Source: Bdellovibrionia bacterium (GTDB lineage: Bacteria > Bdellovibrionota > UBA1018). Taken from it: a stretch of 33,608 nt of DNA. The stretch lies in contig JBJMMA010000183.1 of assembly GCA_045805065.1 (NCBI GenBank), forward strand, positions 1 through 33,608. Direction: 5' to 3'. This document shows, in pieces, positions 18,001 through 24,000 of this stretch (its first letter is position 1; each line of letters begins with the position of its first letter). Position numbers: made by a program.

Positions 18001-21000
18001 GTAATAATTCAACTCACCTAGCTTTGCTGCGATATCAACGACTTACCGAAAGCGTGATACTGCTACAGGCTTAGGCTTCAGGAGAAGCTTCTTTCCTCTC
18101 CATCGGACCGACCAGATCGCGAACCACGAGAGAGGCCGCGACGTTTCCGAACGTGCCCGTCACAAAGCTTGCGTTGCCCAAGATGAGGTTGCGGCTATCG
18201 CAGTTGAAATAAGGGTTATCGTTGCCTGGGCAAACGCAGCGGAAGCCTTTGCCGTTATCGTATTTGAGTTCTGCAGGCCAGGTCGGTGGCTCGTCCGAGT
18301 AGATCGTCTGAATTCCCCATTGGCCCTTCTCCGGGAAGCCGTACTTTTCGCGAAGAATCCTTCTCACTGCGCGCGCCAGAGGATCGTTCTCGGTTTGAGC
18401 AAGGTCGCGCACCTTGACCTTGAGCGGATCCATGCGTCCACCCGAGCCTGCGGAGCTGACGATCGGAATCTTGCGCTCGCGGCAAAGGTTCAAAAGGTGG
18501 GTCTTGGAAGTGATGTGATCAATCGCATCGATCACATAATCCGGACGTTGAGCAAAAATCTCATCGGCCGTCTCGAAATTATAAAACTTGCTGTGAACAT
18601 TGATCTTGGCCTGTGGATTGATCTTTTTCAGGCGATCCGCGACAACATCGGCCTTTTTGCTTCCCACGAGGCCTTGAAGCGCATGAAGCTGGCGATTGAA
18701 ATTGGTCACGCAGATATCATCAAAATCGACGATCGAGATCTCGCCCACTCCGGAGCGCGCGATGCACTCAGCAGCCCAAGAGCCCACGCCGCCCAGACCA
18801 ATGATCATCACATGAGAGTTCATGAGCTTCTTCATGCGATCATCGCCAATGAGACGTCCCATGCGGTCAAAGCGTCTGTGAAGACGGTATTGATCCATCT
18901 CGGCTTCAGTCATGTCCTGCATCGGCTTTTCTTGAGCAGGGTTTTGGGCTGAGGTTTCTGGCTGGGTTACGGTCAAAGTGTCGTTCATAAAGTCAGACTA
19001 TTTAAAGACTTATGACGCGCAACTCAAGCCCAAAAATCCTAAATAGATTCAGCCGGCTGGCTTCCAAAACTTGCTCTGGCTTCAGGCCTTCCTGCTCTTT
19101 GAGTTTGCAGATGGCCTCAGCCACAGTCCAAAGGCTTCGAGGATCGTTCGTGCCCTCTTCAAAGCCATGATATTCATCCGGAATTTGATCAGGGCTATCG
19201 GACTCAACCACGATACTTTCCAAAGGCAAGCGTTTGAGCGCCCGCTTGAGGGTCTCATATCCCTTTTTTGCGGCCACTCCCCCAATCGATGGAGTCAATC
19301 CGAGCCGCTCGTATTCCCGGGCAATCTCATAACTTCCGGAGAAGGCATGAACCAGCCCCCCGCGAGGCCAAGGACCGTGCTGAGCCAGGAGTGCAAGGGT
19401 TTGCGGGTGTGCCTTAACGGTGTGAAGCACCAGGGGCAGATTAGCCTTCTTAGCGATCTCAAGCTGTCTTACAAAGACTTCAGTCTGATACTCCTCGGTA
19501 CCCGGATCCGTCTTTGGGCCAAGATCGATTCCAAGCTCTCCAATGGCAATGGCTTTGGATTGGCCATTCGCCAGAGTTCTGGAAAGGTACTCAGGCAAAA
19601 TCTCAAGCGCATGATCGACCTGTTTTTTAAGCTCGGCGCCCGTGACACCCATGCGACCCGCAACAAACCAGGGATGAATCCCAAAGCACGGGTAAACAAC
19701 GCCAGGATAACGCTCCGCCAACTCAAGCTGAAGATCCCAATCCGTTGGATGGATGCCTCCTTGGATAAAGGCACCAATCTCGCGCGTTCGTGCCGCAGCA
19801 AACATGGCATCGAGCCGCTTAAAGAGCCGATGATCCGCTAAATGGCAGTGCGCATCTATAAAACGGGCTGGATTGTCGACTCTTTTTGTTTCTGACATTT
19901 GAATTGGTACTGCGTTTGGAATTCCGGCTGAAACTGTGGATGCAGCCTGATTCTCTTTTCAAACTCCTGAGCCTGCTCTTGCGAAAGGTCTGCCGGAATC
20001 TTTACCCCGCTTCTCTCCCAACGCTCAAGCCAGCTTGAGTCTAAAAGCTCATATTGGAAATCAGGAGAAAGTGCCGCCTTCGGCGTTAAAGCAATCGTTG
20101 TCTCGCCCTTAGGTCCCGTACCTACTCCGCGTGCGACGACAAAGCCCGCAGCCAAAAGAGCGGATCTCACTGCGGTGGATGCCGAGTAAGTAAAGAGAGC
20201 CGTTTCCTGATCGCCCACGTAGGCCAGGATCTTCTCAAACGTCTCACGCGTCCAAAGCGGCGAATCCACTTTGTAAGAGAACGGATCAAAATAGATGAGA
20301 TCAGGCTTTGGGGCCAGCTTCATCTTTTCCATGAAATCGCCTTCAAAAAGCGTCCACTCAATGGGATGCTTCTCGGATTTCCAGTTACCGTTCTGAAGCA
20401 ACGCGCGCGGCGCCGCATGCCAGAGACTTGAGAAAAGCGCATGATGCTTGAGCGCCAGGCGAAATGCATCGAGATCAATCTCAAAGCTCACCAGATGCAT
20501 TTTCTTCAGGCCATCCGTCTCGCAAGCGCGGATCGTCTCAAGCGCATTTGTTCCAGCGCCTAAGCCCACATCCCAAACCACGAGATCTTTTTGCCCGAGA
20601 CGCTCAGTGATCTGAGACTGAGCCACATAAAGTCGGCGTGCTTCGTCCGATGGCTCACTCACCGAGTGCATGATCTCGCCTGACGTGCTGTCCTTCACAC
20701 TCCAAAAGCCTTGAGCCGATTGAACGAGCTCAAACTTACCCAGAGTGCGCGCGCGACCTCCGATGCGATCGCGCGGAGGCTTTGCATATTTCTTTGGATT
20801 TTCCTGGTCGTCGCGCACAAGCTCTTCGCGCTTCTCGCGATAATACTGCAGGAAGGTATCGTTCAAGATCGCTTCACGCATCTGACTCATCAGCTGATGA
20901 TAAAAATGCAGATTGTGATGACCAATCAGATGCCAGCCAAGAAGCTCCTTGGTCTTGACCAGATGATGGATGTAGCCGCGCGAGTAATTCTTGCAAGTAT

Positions 21001-24000
21001 CGCAATCGCAGCCCGGAACGAGCGCATCGTCTGAGAACTTATAAACGCTTCGTCTCAGGTCAAATCTTCCCTTGAACGAGAACGTCACGCCTTGCTGAGC
21101 AAGGGCGGTTGGAAGAATGCAATCAAACATGTCCACGCCGCAATGAACGGCTTCCAAAAGATCGATCGGCGTTCCAACGCCCATCAGATAGCGCGGAAGA
21201 TTCTTGGGCAAAAGATCCGCAGTGAGCGCGCAGAAATGCTCACGCTCATGTTTGGTCTCACCCACGGCAAGACCACCGATGGCAAAGCCATCAAACGGAA
21301 GCTGTGTGAGAAAAGCCGCGCTCTCTTTTCTGAGATCCTCAAAGCATGCGCCTTGAACGATTCCAAACATGGATTGTGGCGAATCACCGCGCGCGGCAAG
21401 ACTGCGCTTGGCCCAGCGATGCGTGAGATGCATGGCGGCTTCAGCTTCAGCGCGCTCGGAAGTGGTTGGAATGCACTGATCGAGCACCATCATGATGTCG
21501 CTTCCGATCGCCTTTTGCATGCCGATGCTTCGCTCTGGGCTTAGAAGGATTTTGGTGCCATCGACATAGCTTTTAAAACTTGCGCCTTCTTCTGTCATCT
21601 TGCGCGCATGAGGAAGCGAGAAGACCTGAAAGCCCCCCGAGTCCGTCAGCACGGAGCGATCCCACTTCATGAAGTTGTGGATTCCGCCAAAGCGCTCGAA
21701 CACTTCAGCACCGGGTCTCAAGAGCAGATGATAAGTGTTGGCGAGCAGGACTTGCGCGCCAGTCTGCTTCAAAGTTTCGCGAGTCTGCGAGCGAACCGTA
21801 GCCTGCGTTCCCACGGGCATGAAGATCGGGGTCTTCACCTCGTTATGAAGGGTACGAAAAGTTGCCGCGCGTGCGCGCGATCCGGTGGCTATGGCCTCAA
21901 GTTGAAATTTTAATCGACTCATATACTGAATGCTGATCTCTGGCCGAAACCTTAGCACACTGAGTTACACAGCGTCGAAAAAACAAGTCTTCGAACTTAT
22001 TCATCTATTGGGTCCGTCTAGGGGTCGCCAGCCGAGCTGCTTAACTTTTTCCTCAAATATTCCGATACCCTAGAGAGATGAAGCGCGTAAACTCAGTGCA
22101 AAAGCTGATTTGCCATTCCGGACTGGCCGTTTTGGCTTTGTTCTCAGGGACCGCTTGTTTTGGGGCAAAACCGAGTCCTGAGATCAATCCCCCTCCGGTC
22201 ATCATTCTTCCTAATCTTCTCAATTTCATGGATGGCCGATATGACTTCGCCTACGAATTTGTGACAAGGCCTCTGCACTTAGGAGGCATGGGAGAGACTT
22301 CTCCTAGCGTCGCTTCGAGAAGAGCTCTTGCCCTTGAGAAAGCACATCCCTCTCTCCAGGAACTCAAAAATTACGCAGCGATTTTTGAAGCGGCGTTTTT
22401 TCAAGCGCTGAGCCCTTCGAAAGATGGCGGTCTCGGCTACTTGTATGAGAACGACGCTTATTACTGGGCCAAATACATGGCTGATACGCTCCACGAGCCC
22501 GCGCAATTTGACGCTCTTGTGAAAAAGTATCGCTATGCCCTCTCCTTTGCGCTGCAGCCGATCCATGAAGGTGGCTTAGGGTACGACCCGGATTTCAAAA
22601 CTCGAGACTGGGCTCTCTCACATGCCCAAAGTTTTGAAACTTTGGAAGAGCTGAAGAATTTCACCCGTAAGTATCGTGAGGCCCTTGAGTATTTTCAAGC
22701 GCCAGAACATCAATACAGCCCGCTTAGACCCCCAGAGCTTCGTGACCGGGCTCTGGCGAACTTGAGTAATGTGGATCATTTCAAGCAAGCCGACATAAAA
22801 AATCCGCCGCGTTTTGCGCGTTTTACCAAATTCAAGTGCCTCAAGAGCCAGCTCAAAACACTTCTTCACTTTTAAGATTTTAGACCGCAGCCCAGTCTAT
22901 GCTATTCAAAACTTAAGGCTATGGCGAACGCATCCAACTTCTTACTCATCATCTGCTGCTTTGTTTTTGGAATGGGACTCAAGCGCCTCAAAGTGATGCC
23001 CGCAGACGCTCACGTTGCGCTGAACCGATTCATCATCTACATCTCACTGCCGGCGCTCACTCTTGAACTGGTTCATAAGCTTGAGCTTGGAGGAAACGCT
23101 CTCTATCCAGTGATGATGCCGTGGATCTTTTTCATCGTTGCAGCTTTCTTTTTCAAAGCGCTCGCAAAACCCATGAAATGGGACGTTGGAACCTTGGGCG
23201 CACTGATCCTCACGGGTGGGCTCGGAAACACATCCTTCTTGGGCTACCCCCTGATTGAGACTTTTTACGGCAAGGACGCGCTCTCTGTCGGCGTGCTCAC
23301 AGATCAACCCGGCTCTTTCATGGTCCTGAGCACCTTGGGAATTTTCACTGCATCGAGTTGCGCGGGATCTAATCTTAAAGCCTCACAAATCTTCAAACGC
23401 ATCCTTACGTTTCCACCCTTTCAGGCCGCGGTCCTTGCTCTTCTTTTGAGACCCTTTGCCTACCCCAGCATGGTGAGCCAGGTCTTGGATCGCCTGGGAT
23501 CCACACTGGTGCCGCTTGCGCTTGTATCCGTGGGAATGCAGCTCTCGCTTGATCGCACGCATCTCAAAGAACAGGTCAATGAGCTTGGCATCGGGCTATT
23601 CTACAAACTCATCTTAGGACCCGCGCTGATTGCGCTCCTCTACTTCAAGATCTTTGGAGCCTCGGGACGCGAGATCGAAATCTCGGTCTTTCAAGCCGCG
23701 ATGGCGCCCATGATTACAGGCGGGATCCTGGCCTCTGAAAATGGCCTGAACCCTCGCCTGGCATCCCTGATGATTGGAATTGGAATTCCGCTTTCGCTTC
23801 TGACCGTGCCCGCCTGGTGGTGGCTCTTAAGCCACCCTTAAATTTAGCGAGAATCCAAAAGCAGCTTCTTCCCAAGTTTACCCTTAGGAACATCAACGAT
23901 AGAGCGCTTGCCCCGCTGCTGATTTCCTCCACGACCTGCGACATCCAGAGGAGAGCGATGCTCTTTTCTTCCGTCGGAGCGAGTTTGCAGACCCGGACGA

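Follow-up and report, generated by a model that had tools for sequence, protein, structure and literature searches.

Why would a bacterium keep, beside its ordinary tRNA-guanine transglycosylase (Tgt), a second one fused to a methyltransferase, and which base could such a protein make? This question is raised by a gene located at 19856..21922 on the minus strand of the window (the whole stretch of 33,608 nucleotides analysed, from a Bdellovibrionia bacterium), which encodes, in 688 codons followed by a stop, a Tgt domain, a linker and an MnmC2-like methyltransferase, in this order. The best explanation, to which we give a probability of roughly 40%, is that preQ1 is inserted into an RNA and then N-methylated, at a site read otherwise than the usual U33-G34-U35.

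Organisation of the fusion gene

The translation of 19856-21922 (minus strand) is stop-free over 688 aa, and both the TGT and the Methyltransf_30 domains lie in this single frame. A GTG located upstream, at 21958, would give an alternative protein of 700 aa; the homologues start at the ATG ('MSRL.F'), and full-length ones share 53-95% identity with the fusion protein. The Pfam search detects TGT at residues 16-367 (20822..21877, minus strand; E 2.9e-142) and Methyltransf_30 at residues 494-612 (20087-20443, minus strand; E 3.5e-14). Residues 1-375 can be aligned with the Zymomonas mobilis TGT (1ozm, E 7.2e-106; 6ygl, E 1.4e-105) and residues 398-620 with the Aquifex MnmC2 (3vyw, E 5.7e-9), values that agree with those given in the initial annotation. 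The SAM-dependent methyltransferase unit spans residues 397-665 (19928..20734, minus strand), as delimited by the Pfam and 3vyw matches and by the stand-alone MnmC2-like paralog of the same genome, which aligns to residues 402-665. The anatomy proposed in the initial annotation, an intact preQ1-type Tgt joined to an MnmC2-like amine methylase, is thus borne out.

The linker (residues 369-396; 20735..20818, minus strand) varies in length and sequence among homologues, with gappy, unconserved alignment columns. In an AlphaFold2 model of the fusion (pTM 0.59), residues 378-386 have pLDDT values below 50 and the two active sites adopt no fixed arrangement; by this model, the linker is a flexible tether of about 25 residues. 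Downstream, on the same strand, lies a gene for a TatD-family hydrolase (19002..19898; Pfam TatD_DNase, 1e-52), whose frame, as given by the ORF list, shares 43 bases with the 3' end of the fusion gene. We regard it as a neighbour by position, and the neighbourhood is not kept in other genomes.

The genome contains two TGT matches, the fusion gene and one on contig C101, and two PF05430 matches, the fusion gene and a 284-aa frame on contig C106, in agreement with the ordinary tgt and the stand-alone methylase reported earlier. QueF, QueA and MnmG, which had also been listed, were all found. With the NCBIfam model TIGR00430 (cut-off 306.75), the fusion protein scores 447.7 bits and the ordinary Tgt 508.9 bits.

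A paralogous Tgt clade present in many phyla

The Tgt halves of all fusion proteins and seven unfused relatives form one clade in a tree of 140 rows (SH-like support 100, stem 0.54), which is also recovered by IQ-TREE under LG+C20 with 62 rows (SH-aLRT 100). The ordinary Tgts of fusion-bearing genomes group with their taxonomic kin in these trees, and an ordinary tgt is present in 53 of the 55 fusion-bearing genomes checked (17/18, 5/5 and 31/32). The Tgt half of the fusion is therefore not the housekeeping gene; it belongs to a separate, well supported, long-stem paralog clade found across many phyla (hereafter Tgt2), which occurs beside the ordinary tgt and not in its place.

A search with methylase patterns led to 80 species-level loci, 74 of them fused, from Verrucomicrobiota, Planctomycetota and Acidobacteriota. 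An alignment-based scan adds Bdellovibrionales, Riflebacteria, Myxococcota and Steroidobacteraceae, and the source names of protein matches add Leptospira and Binatia. With the C-terminal part as query, 1873 proteins match at E<=1e-3, and PF05430 occurs together with PF01702 in each of the 120 matches listed, confirming that the fusion is widespread. Literature searches found no paper on a Tgt-MnmC2 fusion.

The two halves are not always joined. In two myxobacteria they correspond to separate, overlapping frames lying side by side. In five Chthoniobacterales genomes, the methylase stands alone and the sole Tgt is an ordinary one with PTRxAR. Conversely, genome G030 encodes an unfused Tgt2 and, in place of a fusion-clade methylase, only a canonical MnmC, and genome G028 an unfused Tgt2 with only a partial MnmC2-like match. 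The survival of the halves alone in these Chthoniobacterales, G030 and G028 counts against a coupled reaction.

Conserved and altered residues of the two halves

Tgt2 combines a TIM-barrel with a zinc subdomain, as does Tgt (EC 2.4.2.29; Z. mobilis, E. coli; TIGR00430), and shares about 46-48% identity with the ordinary Tgts. Nucleophile, general base, zinc ligands and dimer-interface Tyr/His are common to both, and the pocket is of the C158 and V233 type, i.e., for preQ1 and not queuine. The catalytic (D94/D267), pocket (D148, C150, Q190, G216-V220, E222, M247) and zinc (C305/C307/C310/H336) residues, which the initial annotation had described as kept, are all present and invariant in the alignments; except for V220 and M247, they are at least 95% conserved in Tgt2 and ordinary Tgts alike, and these two are invariant in 30 fusion proteins. 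We saw no adaptation of the preQ1 pocket to a methylated base, a point against methylation of the inserted preQ1. Both proteins score above the TIGR00430 equivalog cut-off. With the Pfam TGT model, Tgt2 scores below the ordinary Tgt of its own genome (446-494 versus 487-546 bits) in all but one of 28 genomes with both genes whole, the exception being G081, where the two are nearly equal (493.9 versus 495.4).

A change that had been missed lies just after the nucleophile. At residues 267-278 (21089..21124, minus strand), where ordinary Tgts have DCV[ML]PTRNARNG, the PTRxxRNG motif is replaced by PTALAQQG in this protein and by P[TS]xLAQ[RQ]G in Tgt2 generally, which also differs by V282 to I and N304 to R. 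From the alignment, A273 and Q276 correspond to R286 and R289 in the Z. mobilis numbering, two residues reported to have a role in RNA binding in the structure of that enzyme with RNA. Arginine occupies these columns in 90/90 and 89/90 ordinary Tgts, versus 0/49 and 2/49 Tgt2 proteins and 0/73 and 1/73 further fused loci. Arg286 is described as adjoining the ribose-34 and phosphate-35 pockets (PMC5395182); since Tgt2 lacks both arginines, it probably acts at another RNA site, or binds its RNA in another way, than ordinary Tgt, and the earlier assignment of the reaction to G34 is not safe. The loop that stacks on A37 is also changed: the equivalent of E. coli I101, which makes this contact (PMC13416341), is L/M in 82/90 ordinary Tgts and S/A/D/E/Q in 45/49 Tgt2 proteins. 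The tRNA stem is held in E. coli by basic residues that include the K292 equivalent, according to the same source, and K/R is present there in 49/49 Tgt2 proteins.

Among 66 sequences of the methylase half from many phyla, little or no variation is seen in SAM motif I, the acidic residue of motif II (Glu), the catalytic DxF and the Tyr of motif VI. D546 (66/66) and F548 (63/66), within motif IV DPFS (residues 546-549; 20276..20287, minus strand), align with D193/F195 of Aquifex MnmC2 and D178/F180 of E. coli, and Y579 with Aquifex Y225. A catalytic role has been described for the DxF (PMC3527978, PMC3648344), and D193, F195 and Y225 have been proposed as the base and substrate stack (PMC3527978). 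The N-terminal active-site motif SGEIMHS (residues 414-420; 20663..20683, minus strand) corresponds to Y-G-E-P-Y-H-S in Aquifex. At the positions equivalent to E. coli F24 and Y28, where both validated enzymes carry aromatic residues and canonical MnmC has Y/F in 5/5 sequences, the fusion clade has S414 (62/66) and M418 (66/66); F24 and D26 are reported to have a role in the E. coli active site (PMC3648344). The methylase half scores 92.4 bits with the NCBI MnmC2 equivalog (cut-off 136), the fusion methylases are set apart from the canonical MnmC2 domains by long branches (about 1.4 and 1.5 changes per site), and a C-terminal extension, W..RW.RS...HPQF, is conserved in the former. Judged by these comparisons, the fused methylases form a subfamily that has diverged from MnmC2 and whose active-site rim is altered. 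In the family of the source organism, stand-alone methylase paralogs also occur whose distance to the fusion clade is smaller than that to canonical MnmC2, a point against insertion followed by methylation.

A proposed insertion followed by methylation, and its alternatives

We tentatively regard the fusion as a bifunctional RNA-modifying enzyme of the Tgt2 clade. Its N-terminal half, predicted from the conserved residues to be an active transglycosylase, would put preQ1 in place of a guanine in an RNA stem-loop, most probably the anticodon loop of a tRNA, using the nucleophile, base pocket and zinc site of ordinary Tgt. The tethered C-terminal half, with SAM and its Asp-x-Phe centre, would then add a methyl group to the nitrogen of the CH2-NH2 arm that the inserted base carries, as suggested by the fusion and by the chemistry of its family, giving 7-(methylaminomethyl)-7-deazaguanosine. 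If so, an RNA base so far undescribed may be made. Since the two arginines are missing and the A37-stacking loop is changed, Tgt2 is expected to read the loop otherwise: it may act on other tRNAs, at a different position, or on the same GUN tRNAs through a different binding mode. This would explain its coexistence with the housekeeping Tgt without replacement.

QueA needs preQ1-tRNA. Because QueF is present in 27 of 37 fusion-bearing distant genomes, and QueA in 8 of the 10 others, preQ1 should be available in the carriers. The methylated product should no longer be a QueA substrate for queuosine; with QueA encoded in the genome and QueG in 36 of the 41 genomes covered by the search of relatives (though not in G000 itself), methylation would compete with queuosine synthesis if the tRNAs were shared.

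MnmC2 (DUF752; Aquifex 3vyw, E. coli MnmC N-terminal domain), which belongs to the same Pfam family, methylates a primary amine too, on a CH2-NH2 group of a base at position 34. Apart from the Tgt fusion, this methylase family is known in only one fused form, MnmC (PMC3648344), which offers a precedent: the partner there, the FAD oxidase MnmC1, makes the primary-amine substrate, and here the partner is a Tgt. Insertion followed by methylation gains support from the extra paralog clade, the divergent methylase and four relatives (G026, G032, G033 and G034) with a canonical bifunctional MnmC (179-203 bits) beside the fusion. The initial proposal of these two steps thus stands as the best single reading, with a product that we infer.

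The main rival, a live one though somewhat less probable, had been raised as a caveat: Tgt2 would insert preQ1 at G34 of Asp/Asn/His/Tyr tRNAs, and the methylase, as an MnmC2, would turn nm5(s2)U34 of Lys/Glu/Gln tRNAs into mnm5(s2)U34, the fusion serving only co-expression or co-localisation. It gained weight because canonical MnmC2 was found in none of 42 genomes from other phyla and each half survives alone; the fusion-clade methylase, sole MnmC2-like protein in 34 of these genomes, could simply be their mnm5U methylase. All catalytic motifs known from the validated Aquifex enzyme are retained, no docked arrangement of the tethered halves is predicted, and the methylase persists where Tgt2 is gone. 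The present genome, with MnmG and no MnmC1 found over cut-off, fits the MnmC1-independent route described for Aquifex (PMC3527978). However, two independent activities account neither for the fused Tgt being in every case a divergent additional copy, beside an ordinary tgt (53/55), nor for its loss of two invariant arginines. They also sit poorly with the four relatives holding a full canonical MnmC, with further stand-alone MnmC2-like genes in this genome and many relatives, and with a methylase below the equivalog cut-off that resembles neither validated enzyme at the F24/Y28 places.

It is improbable that Tgt2 targets a nucleic acid other than tRNA (rRNA or some other structured RNA, or DNA like DpdA), on which the methylase would complete the inserted base, giving a cellular counterpart of phage mdPreQ1. 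The absence of the arginines that face the loop and of the hydrophobic residue stacking on A37 would fit, TGT-family enzymes are described as having moved between RNA and DNA substrates (PMC5699537), and mdPreQ1, or 7-(methylamino)methyl-7-deazaguanine, is made in phage DNA by DpdA and DpdM (PMC10516641). The phage parallel drawn initially with mpreQ1 holds for the proposed chemistry, insertion of preQ1 by a TGT-family enzyme followed by methylation of its aminomethyl group. It does not extend to the enzymes: the phage transglycosylase is DpdA, not a bacterial Tgt, its target is DNA, and DpdM, a DUF3109 metalloprotein whose metal sites are rich in Cys, has no relation to the Rossmann-fold MnmC2 (PMC10516641); the Pfam search gave no DUF3109 match in the fusion protein. 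Moreover, Tgt2 scores as a bacterial tRNA Tgt equivalog and not as an outlying DpdA-like branch, and it keeps the basic residues by which E. coli TGT holds the tRNA stem. In whole orders, the fusion occurs as a single gene that is widely inherited, and among 96 loci it has no conserved neighbour (the most frequent family occurs in 9) and no recurrent DNA-metabolism, restriction or defence gene nearby. Finally, a methylase half inert on RNA bases, serving as a SAM sensor or additional RNA-binding module to adjust a second Tgt isozyme that is used under certain conditions, would agree with its score below the MnmC2 cut-off and with the unfused Tgt2 forms but is very improbable, given the near-invariant motifs, a pattern of working enzymes, and the retention of the methylase as a separate gene after Tgt2 loss.

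A Tgt protein fused to an MnmC2-like methylase

The minus-strand frame at positions 19856–21922 of the window is open over 688 codons and encodes a protein in which Pfam detects a TGT domain (residues 16–367, E 2.9e-142) and a Methyltransf_30 domain (residues 494–612, E 3.5e-14). The Tgt half scores above the cut-off of the NCBIfam Tgt equivalog TIGR00430 (447.7 versus 306.75 bits) and aligns over residues 1–375 with the TGT of Z. mobilis (1ozm, E 7e-106). The methylase half aligns over residues 398–620 with MnmC2 from Aquifex (3vyw, E 5.7e-9) and falls below the cut-off of the MnmC2 equivalog domain NF033855 (92.4 versus 136 bits, residues 414–611). 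The same genome (G000, 94% complete) also has an ordinary tgt, located on contig C101 (508.9 bits with TIGR00430), a stand-alone MnmC2-like frame of 284 aa on contig C106 (73.2 bits), and the genes of QueF, QueA and MnmG; no MnmC1 oxidase domain reaching the cut-off was detected in it. The initial annotation had described this anatomy, i.e., a Tgt fused to an MnmC2-like domain in a genome that also has an ordinary tgt and a stand-alone methylase, and our analysis confirms it, the Pfam, NCBIfam and structure-alignment scores being closely reproduced.

The AlphaFold2 model of the fusion protein, computed with 30 homologues as input, has a mean pLDDT of 88.7 and a pTM of 0.59, with pLDDT values below 50 at residues 378–386. 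The tether between the two halves is the length-variable part of the homologue alignment, and the protein is predicted to be composed of two well-folded domains joined by a flexible tether. A complex prediction in which the two halves were docked gave a score of 0.00 (mark 0.32), which weighs neither for nor against their docking.

No conserved gene neighbours of the fusion were detected by Pfam analysis of 51 neighbouring frames at 12 loci or by clustering of the frames at 96 loci; the commonest neighbouring family occurs at 9 of these 96 loci, in close relatives. In the window, the final 43 bases of the fusion gene are shared with a TatD-family hydrolase frame (19002–19898, minus strand), after which comes a ThiF-family gene (18071–18988, minus strand); the three genes may form one transcription unit. 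Upstream of the fusion, at a distance of 2 kb and beyond two plus-strand frames, the strand of the fusion also carries the gene of a radical SAM protein of 732 aa with Radical_SAM_N and DUF3362 domains (23844–26042, minus strand). None of the TatD, ThiF and radical-SAM genes is a recurrent neighbour elsewhere.

A divergent Tgt paralog beside the ordinary enzyme

In a FastTree phylogeny of 140 Tgt domains, the Tgt halves of all fusion proteins and seven unfused relatives form one clade of 49 rows (support 100, stem 0.54), hereafter called Tgt2. The Tgt half of the fusion thus belongs to this separate clade and does not group with the housekeeping Tgts of related organisms. The ordinary Tgts of the genomes bearing a fusion (carriers) group with those of their taxonomic kin, e.g., in a 16-row clade of the window's order (support 99). 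The same split between Tgt2 and ordinary Tgts was obtained with IQ-TREE (LG+C20+F+G4, SH-aLRT 100) on 62 of the 139 usable rows, corresponding to 25 Tgt2, 15 ordinary Tgts encoded by carriers or by related genomes, and 22 random rows. One row (P0045), a mis-cut domain on a branch of 6.3 in the 140-row tree, was left out of both the IQ-TREE pool and the residue counts. Different phyla are mixed within the Tgt2 clade, indicating that the gene has moved horizontally.

The paralog almost always coexists with an ordinary tgt. A whole-protein search of G000 and its 40 nearest genomes (41 in all) detected fusion-type matches in 18 genomes, the window's own included, with 53–87% identity over both halves and some of them cut by contig ends. 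An ordinary tgt (45–49% identity) is also present in 17 of these 18 genomes, the exception (G016) being 56% complete. All five distant carriers (Nannocystis exedens and bins of Myxococcales, Acidobacteriota, Verrucomicrobiae and Steroidobacteraceae) have a second tgt with 44–48% identity. Of 32 further carriers, most of which are Verrucomicrobiota, 31 have an ordinary tgt, which is fragmented across neighbouring frames in two of the 31 and cut by a contig end in one. Overall, an ordinary tgt accompanies the fusion in 53 of 55 carriers, and only G016 and a second carrier, G078, lack it. Tgt2 had appeared as the sole Tgt in G038; this was rejected, since a family search revealed part of a second TGT (41 residues) where a contig begins. 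One genome, G019, encodes three Tgt genes (L009, L010 and L102), namely the fusion, an unfused Tgt2 (67% identity) and an ordinary tgt.

The chemistry of the Tgt half appears well preserved. In the 1ozm alignment, the window's protein keeps the catalytic aspartate pair D102 and D280 of the Z. mobilis enzyme as D94 (general base) and D267 (nucleophile), the base pocket as D148, C150, Q190, G216–V220, E222 and M247 (Z. mobilis D156, C158, Q203, G229–V233, E235 and M260), and the zinc site CxCxxC...H as C305/C307/C310/H336. Each of these residues is invariant among 30 fusion proteins. The catalytic, zinc and dimer-interface Tyr/His residues and most pocket residues are at least 95% identical in Tgt2 and ordinary Tgts, with the exception of V220 and M247. 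The Tgt2 pocket is of the preQ1 type, with Cys and Val, versus Val and Gly in eukaryotes (for the roles of the catalytic and pocket residues, see the relevant passages of PMC5699537).

The sharpest difference of Tgt2 lies directly after the nucleophile, where ordinary Tgts exhibit the motif DCV[ML]PTRNARNG and Tgt2 proteins DCI[LI]P[TS]xLAQ[RQ]G. In the corresponding 12 residues of the window's copy, as translated, the motif PTRxxR is absent, A273 and Q276 occupying the columns of Z. mobilis R286 and R289. Arginine is present at the R286 column in 0/49 Tgt2 versus 90/90 ordinary Tgts, and at the R289 column in 2/49 versus 89/90. Among 73 further fused loci, two of which repeat contigs already counted, it occurs at R286 in none and at R289 in one. 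In the structure of Z. mobilis TGT with RNA, R286 and R289 reportedly hold the RNA immediately 3′ of G34. According to parts of PMC5395182, Arg286 is located at the cavity joining the ribose-34 and phosphate-35 pockets, and V282 forms part of the floor of this pocket; the V282 column is Ile in 46/49 Tgt2. In the cryo-EM structure of E. coli TGT, as described in sections of PMC13416341, L98 and I101 provide the stack on the flipped A37, and the stem is secured by K285, K292 and R320. At the position of I101, the residue is L or M in 82/90 ordinary Tgts versus S, A, D, E or Q in 45/49 Tgt2, the G99 position is Pro in 42/49 Tgt2, and the position equivalent to K292 is K or R in 49/49 Tgt2. In our reading of these alignments, Tgt2 would still grip an RNA stem-loop and use preQ1, while reading the loop differently.

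The methylase domain and its fused and separate forms

The fusion methylase exhibits the features of class I SAM enzymes, with a GxGxG motif I, an acidic residue in motif II, a DxF motif IV and an aromatic motif VI. In the window's protein, motif I reads WDVGLGAG, within the 11 motif residues that end at position 481, the Glu of motif II is kept, and the two other motifs correspond to D546-P-F548 and T-Y579-S. D546, F548 and Y579 align with Aquifex D193, F195 and Y225 (3vyw) and are conserved in 66/66, 63/66 and 66/66 of the sequences in the clade of the fusion methylase (the fusion clade). In the portions of PMC3527978 dealing with the Aquifex enzyme, these three residues are proposed to provide the catalytic base and the stack on the substrate base, whose aminomethyl arm fits into a narrow pocket. 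Judging from the conserved motifs, the fusion methylase very probably still N-methylates a primary amine.

The predicted rim of the active site differs from that of both validated nm5U methylases. The N-terminal motif is [YF]-G-D-x-[YF]-[FY]-S in canonical MnmC, Y-G-E-P-Y-H-S in Aquifex and S-G-E-x-M-H-S in the fusion clade. The positions of E. coli F24 and Y28 are Y or F in all five canonical MnmC proteins and Y and Y in Aquifex; these aromatics are absent from the fusion clade, which has Ser at the first position (S414, 62/66) and Met at the second (M418, 66/66). In E. coli MnmC, following part of PMC3648344, the SAM nucleoside is covered by F24, and only one acid is nearer to the methyl group than D26. 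One may speculate that the altered rim makes room for a 7-deazapurine.

In a tree of 89 methylase domains, two branches (about 1.4 and 1.5 changes per site) separate the five canonical MnmC proteins of relatives from the 84 others with support 100, a split at which the program itself flags long branches meeting. The 84 other rows correspond to the fusion domains, stand-alone proteins from databases and two clades of stand-alone paralogs of the window's family, one of which includes the C106 gene of G000. The database stand-alone methylases are scattered among the fusion domains, suggesting several independent fissions. In the window's family, stand-alone MnmC2-like genes are present in one or two copies per genome (G000:C106:34516–35337, minus strand; L004; L117–L131); their products score 54–85 bits against the cut-off of 136 and are nearer to the fusion methylase than to canonical MnmC2. 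Neither canonical MnmC nor MnmC1 was found in this family.

Retrieval with methylase patterns led to 80 species-level loci, 74 fused and six with the methylase only, the latter all from Chthoniobacterales or other Verrucomicrobiota bins. Five of the six methylase-only genomes were examined; each has a single Tgt, with the ordinary PTRxAR motif in 5/5. One of these stand-alone methylases, from Chthoniobacterales (G050:C3:888445–889473, L224), matches fusion residues 336–395, a stretch that covers the last part of the Tgt zinc subdomain together with the linker. This Tgt remnant of about 60 residues indicates that the stand-alone forms descend from fusions by deletion of the Tgt part. Conversely, unfused Tgt2 genes are present in G006, G019, G028, G030 and G038; G030 lacks a fusion-clade methylase and has a canonical MnmC only, and in G028 there is just a partial MnmC2-like match. 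In Nannocystis and one Myxococcales bin, the two halves are encoded by separate, overlapping, adjacent frames. The existence of stand-alone methylases and unfused Tgt2 indicates that either half can work unjoined.

A DTW-domain gene, of the family of tRNA aminocarboxypropyl transferases, is located directly upstream of the unfused Tgt2 gene of G028 (L006:4281–4949, plus strand), a pairing not observed at other loci.

The family is large, the methylase part being matched by 1873 clusters at 90% identity. Source names place the fusion in Nannocystis exedens DSM 71 and Leptospira ognonensis, and metagenome bins labelled Chthoniobacter flavus also carry it. Database labels for these proteins are 'tRNA guanosine(34) transglycosylase Tgt', 'queuine tRNA-ribosyltransferase' and 'MnmC family methyltransferase'.

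Proposed reaction and queuosine context

Tgt and MnmC, which act on the wobble base, are textbook enzymes, and the catalogue of tRNA modifications in bacteria is generally regarded as almost complete. With a probability that we put at roughly 0.4, and leaving the site of action aside, the best single explanation of the fusion is that Tgt2 inserts preQ1 and that the fused methylase then methylates its aminomethyl group. We favour this explanation because 74 of the 80 loci are fused over many phyla, because MnmC provides a precedent, and because the fused Tgt is an extra, divergent paralog. As reported in part of PMC3648344, the partner of this methylase family in its other fusion, MnmC, is the enzyme making its amine substrate, and the active sites of MnmC are 45 Å apart, with no channel. 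If preQ1 is indeed inserted and then methylated, there would be a new RNA nucleoside, a new Tgt specificity and a natural diversion of preQ1 from queuosine.

The full proposal is somewhat more tentative: the fusions could make 7-(methylaminomethyl)-7-deazaguanosine, an uncatalogued nucleoside of cellular RNA, at a site selected by Tgt2 following rules unlike U33-G34-U35. If true, 7-deazaguanine modification of RNA would have a second branch, independent of queuosine, and this branch would occur in at least eight phyla or candidate phyla of bacteria. In full-text searches of papers available without subscription, we found no account of a Tgt-MnmC fusion or of methylated preQ1 in cellular RNA. 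The only related report found concerns a phage DNA base, methylated preQ1, and its unrelated methylase DpdM, which has a DUF3109 fold with a CxxxCxxCC metal motif in the passages of PMC10516641 describing it. Homology of the fusion methylase to DpdM was rejected on this ground, since Pfam detects only TGT and Methyltransf_30 in the fusion protein, and no DUF3109.

The main alternative, two independent wobble activities carried by one fused polypeptide, seems somewhat less likely to us, and the distribution of MnmC bears on it in both directions. In 42 genomes of other phyla, comprising 37 carriers and the five methylase-only genomes, no match exceeds the MnmC2 cut-off, and the fusion-clade methylase is the only MnmC2-family match in 34 of them, so that it could be their mnm5U methylase. 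The independent survival of each half also fits this alternative. In Aquifex, MnmEG makes nm5U directly, according to sections of PMC3527978. Among G000 and its 40 nearest genomes, however, canonical bifunctional MnmC (172–229 bits) is present in nine, all outside the window's family, and four of these nine (G026, G032, G033 and G034) have it in addition to the fusion, which we count in favour of the methylation of inserted preQ1. In G032 and G034, the full-length fusion match contains stop codons, the methylase parts being in open frames. If the two halves did act separately, the fusion would include the missing mnm5U methylase of Verrucomicrobiota, Myxococcota and others, and the second Tgt would still need explaining. 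A target of Tgt2 other than tRNA, with the loop-contacting positions changed and the K292 equivalent retained, is improbable, and a non-catalytic methylase domain, given the conserved D546 and Y579, is highly improbable.

Either way, annotation pipelines assign two 'Tgt' genes to each carrier, masking the difference between the paralogs. The names Nannocystis exedens DSM 71 and Leptospira ognonensis make the question accessible to direct testing, if cultures are at hand.

QueF was detected in 27 of 37 carriers and in all five methylase-only genomes. Seven of the ten carriers without QueF also lack QueC and eight have QueA, a pattern that fits either preQ1 salvage or incomplete bins and favours neither of the two main explanations. 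Five genomes (G059, G060, G064, G070 and G078) have QueA and two Tgt-family genes (the fusion only in G078), with neither QueF nor QueC; provided that the bins are complete, this suggests a reliance on salvaged preQ1. In the search of G000 and its 40 nearest genomes, QueG (TIGR00276) and QueH (PF02677) were not found in the 94% complete assembly of G000. QueG occurs in 36 of these 41 genomes; each of the 36 is a relative, and one is of the same genus. We thus rejected the idea that the gap is meaningful, and it most likely corresponds to the missing 6% of the assembly. In the Verrucomicrobiae carrier G051, there are two QueA matches, at C1:2251471–2252433 and C1:307277–308311 (387 and 277 bits).
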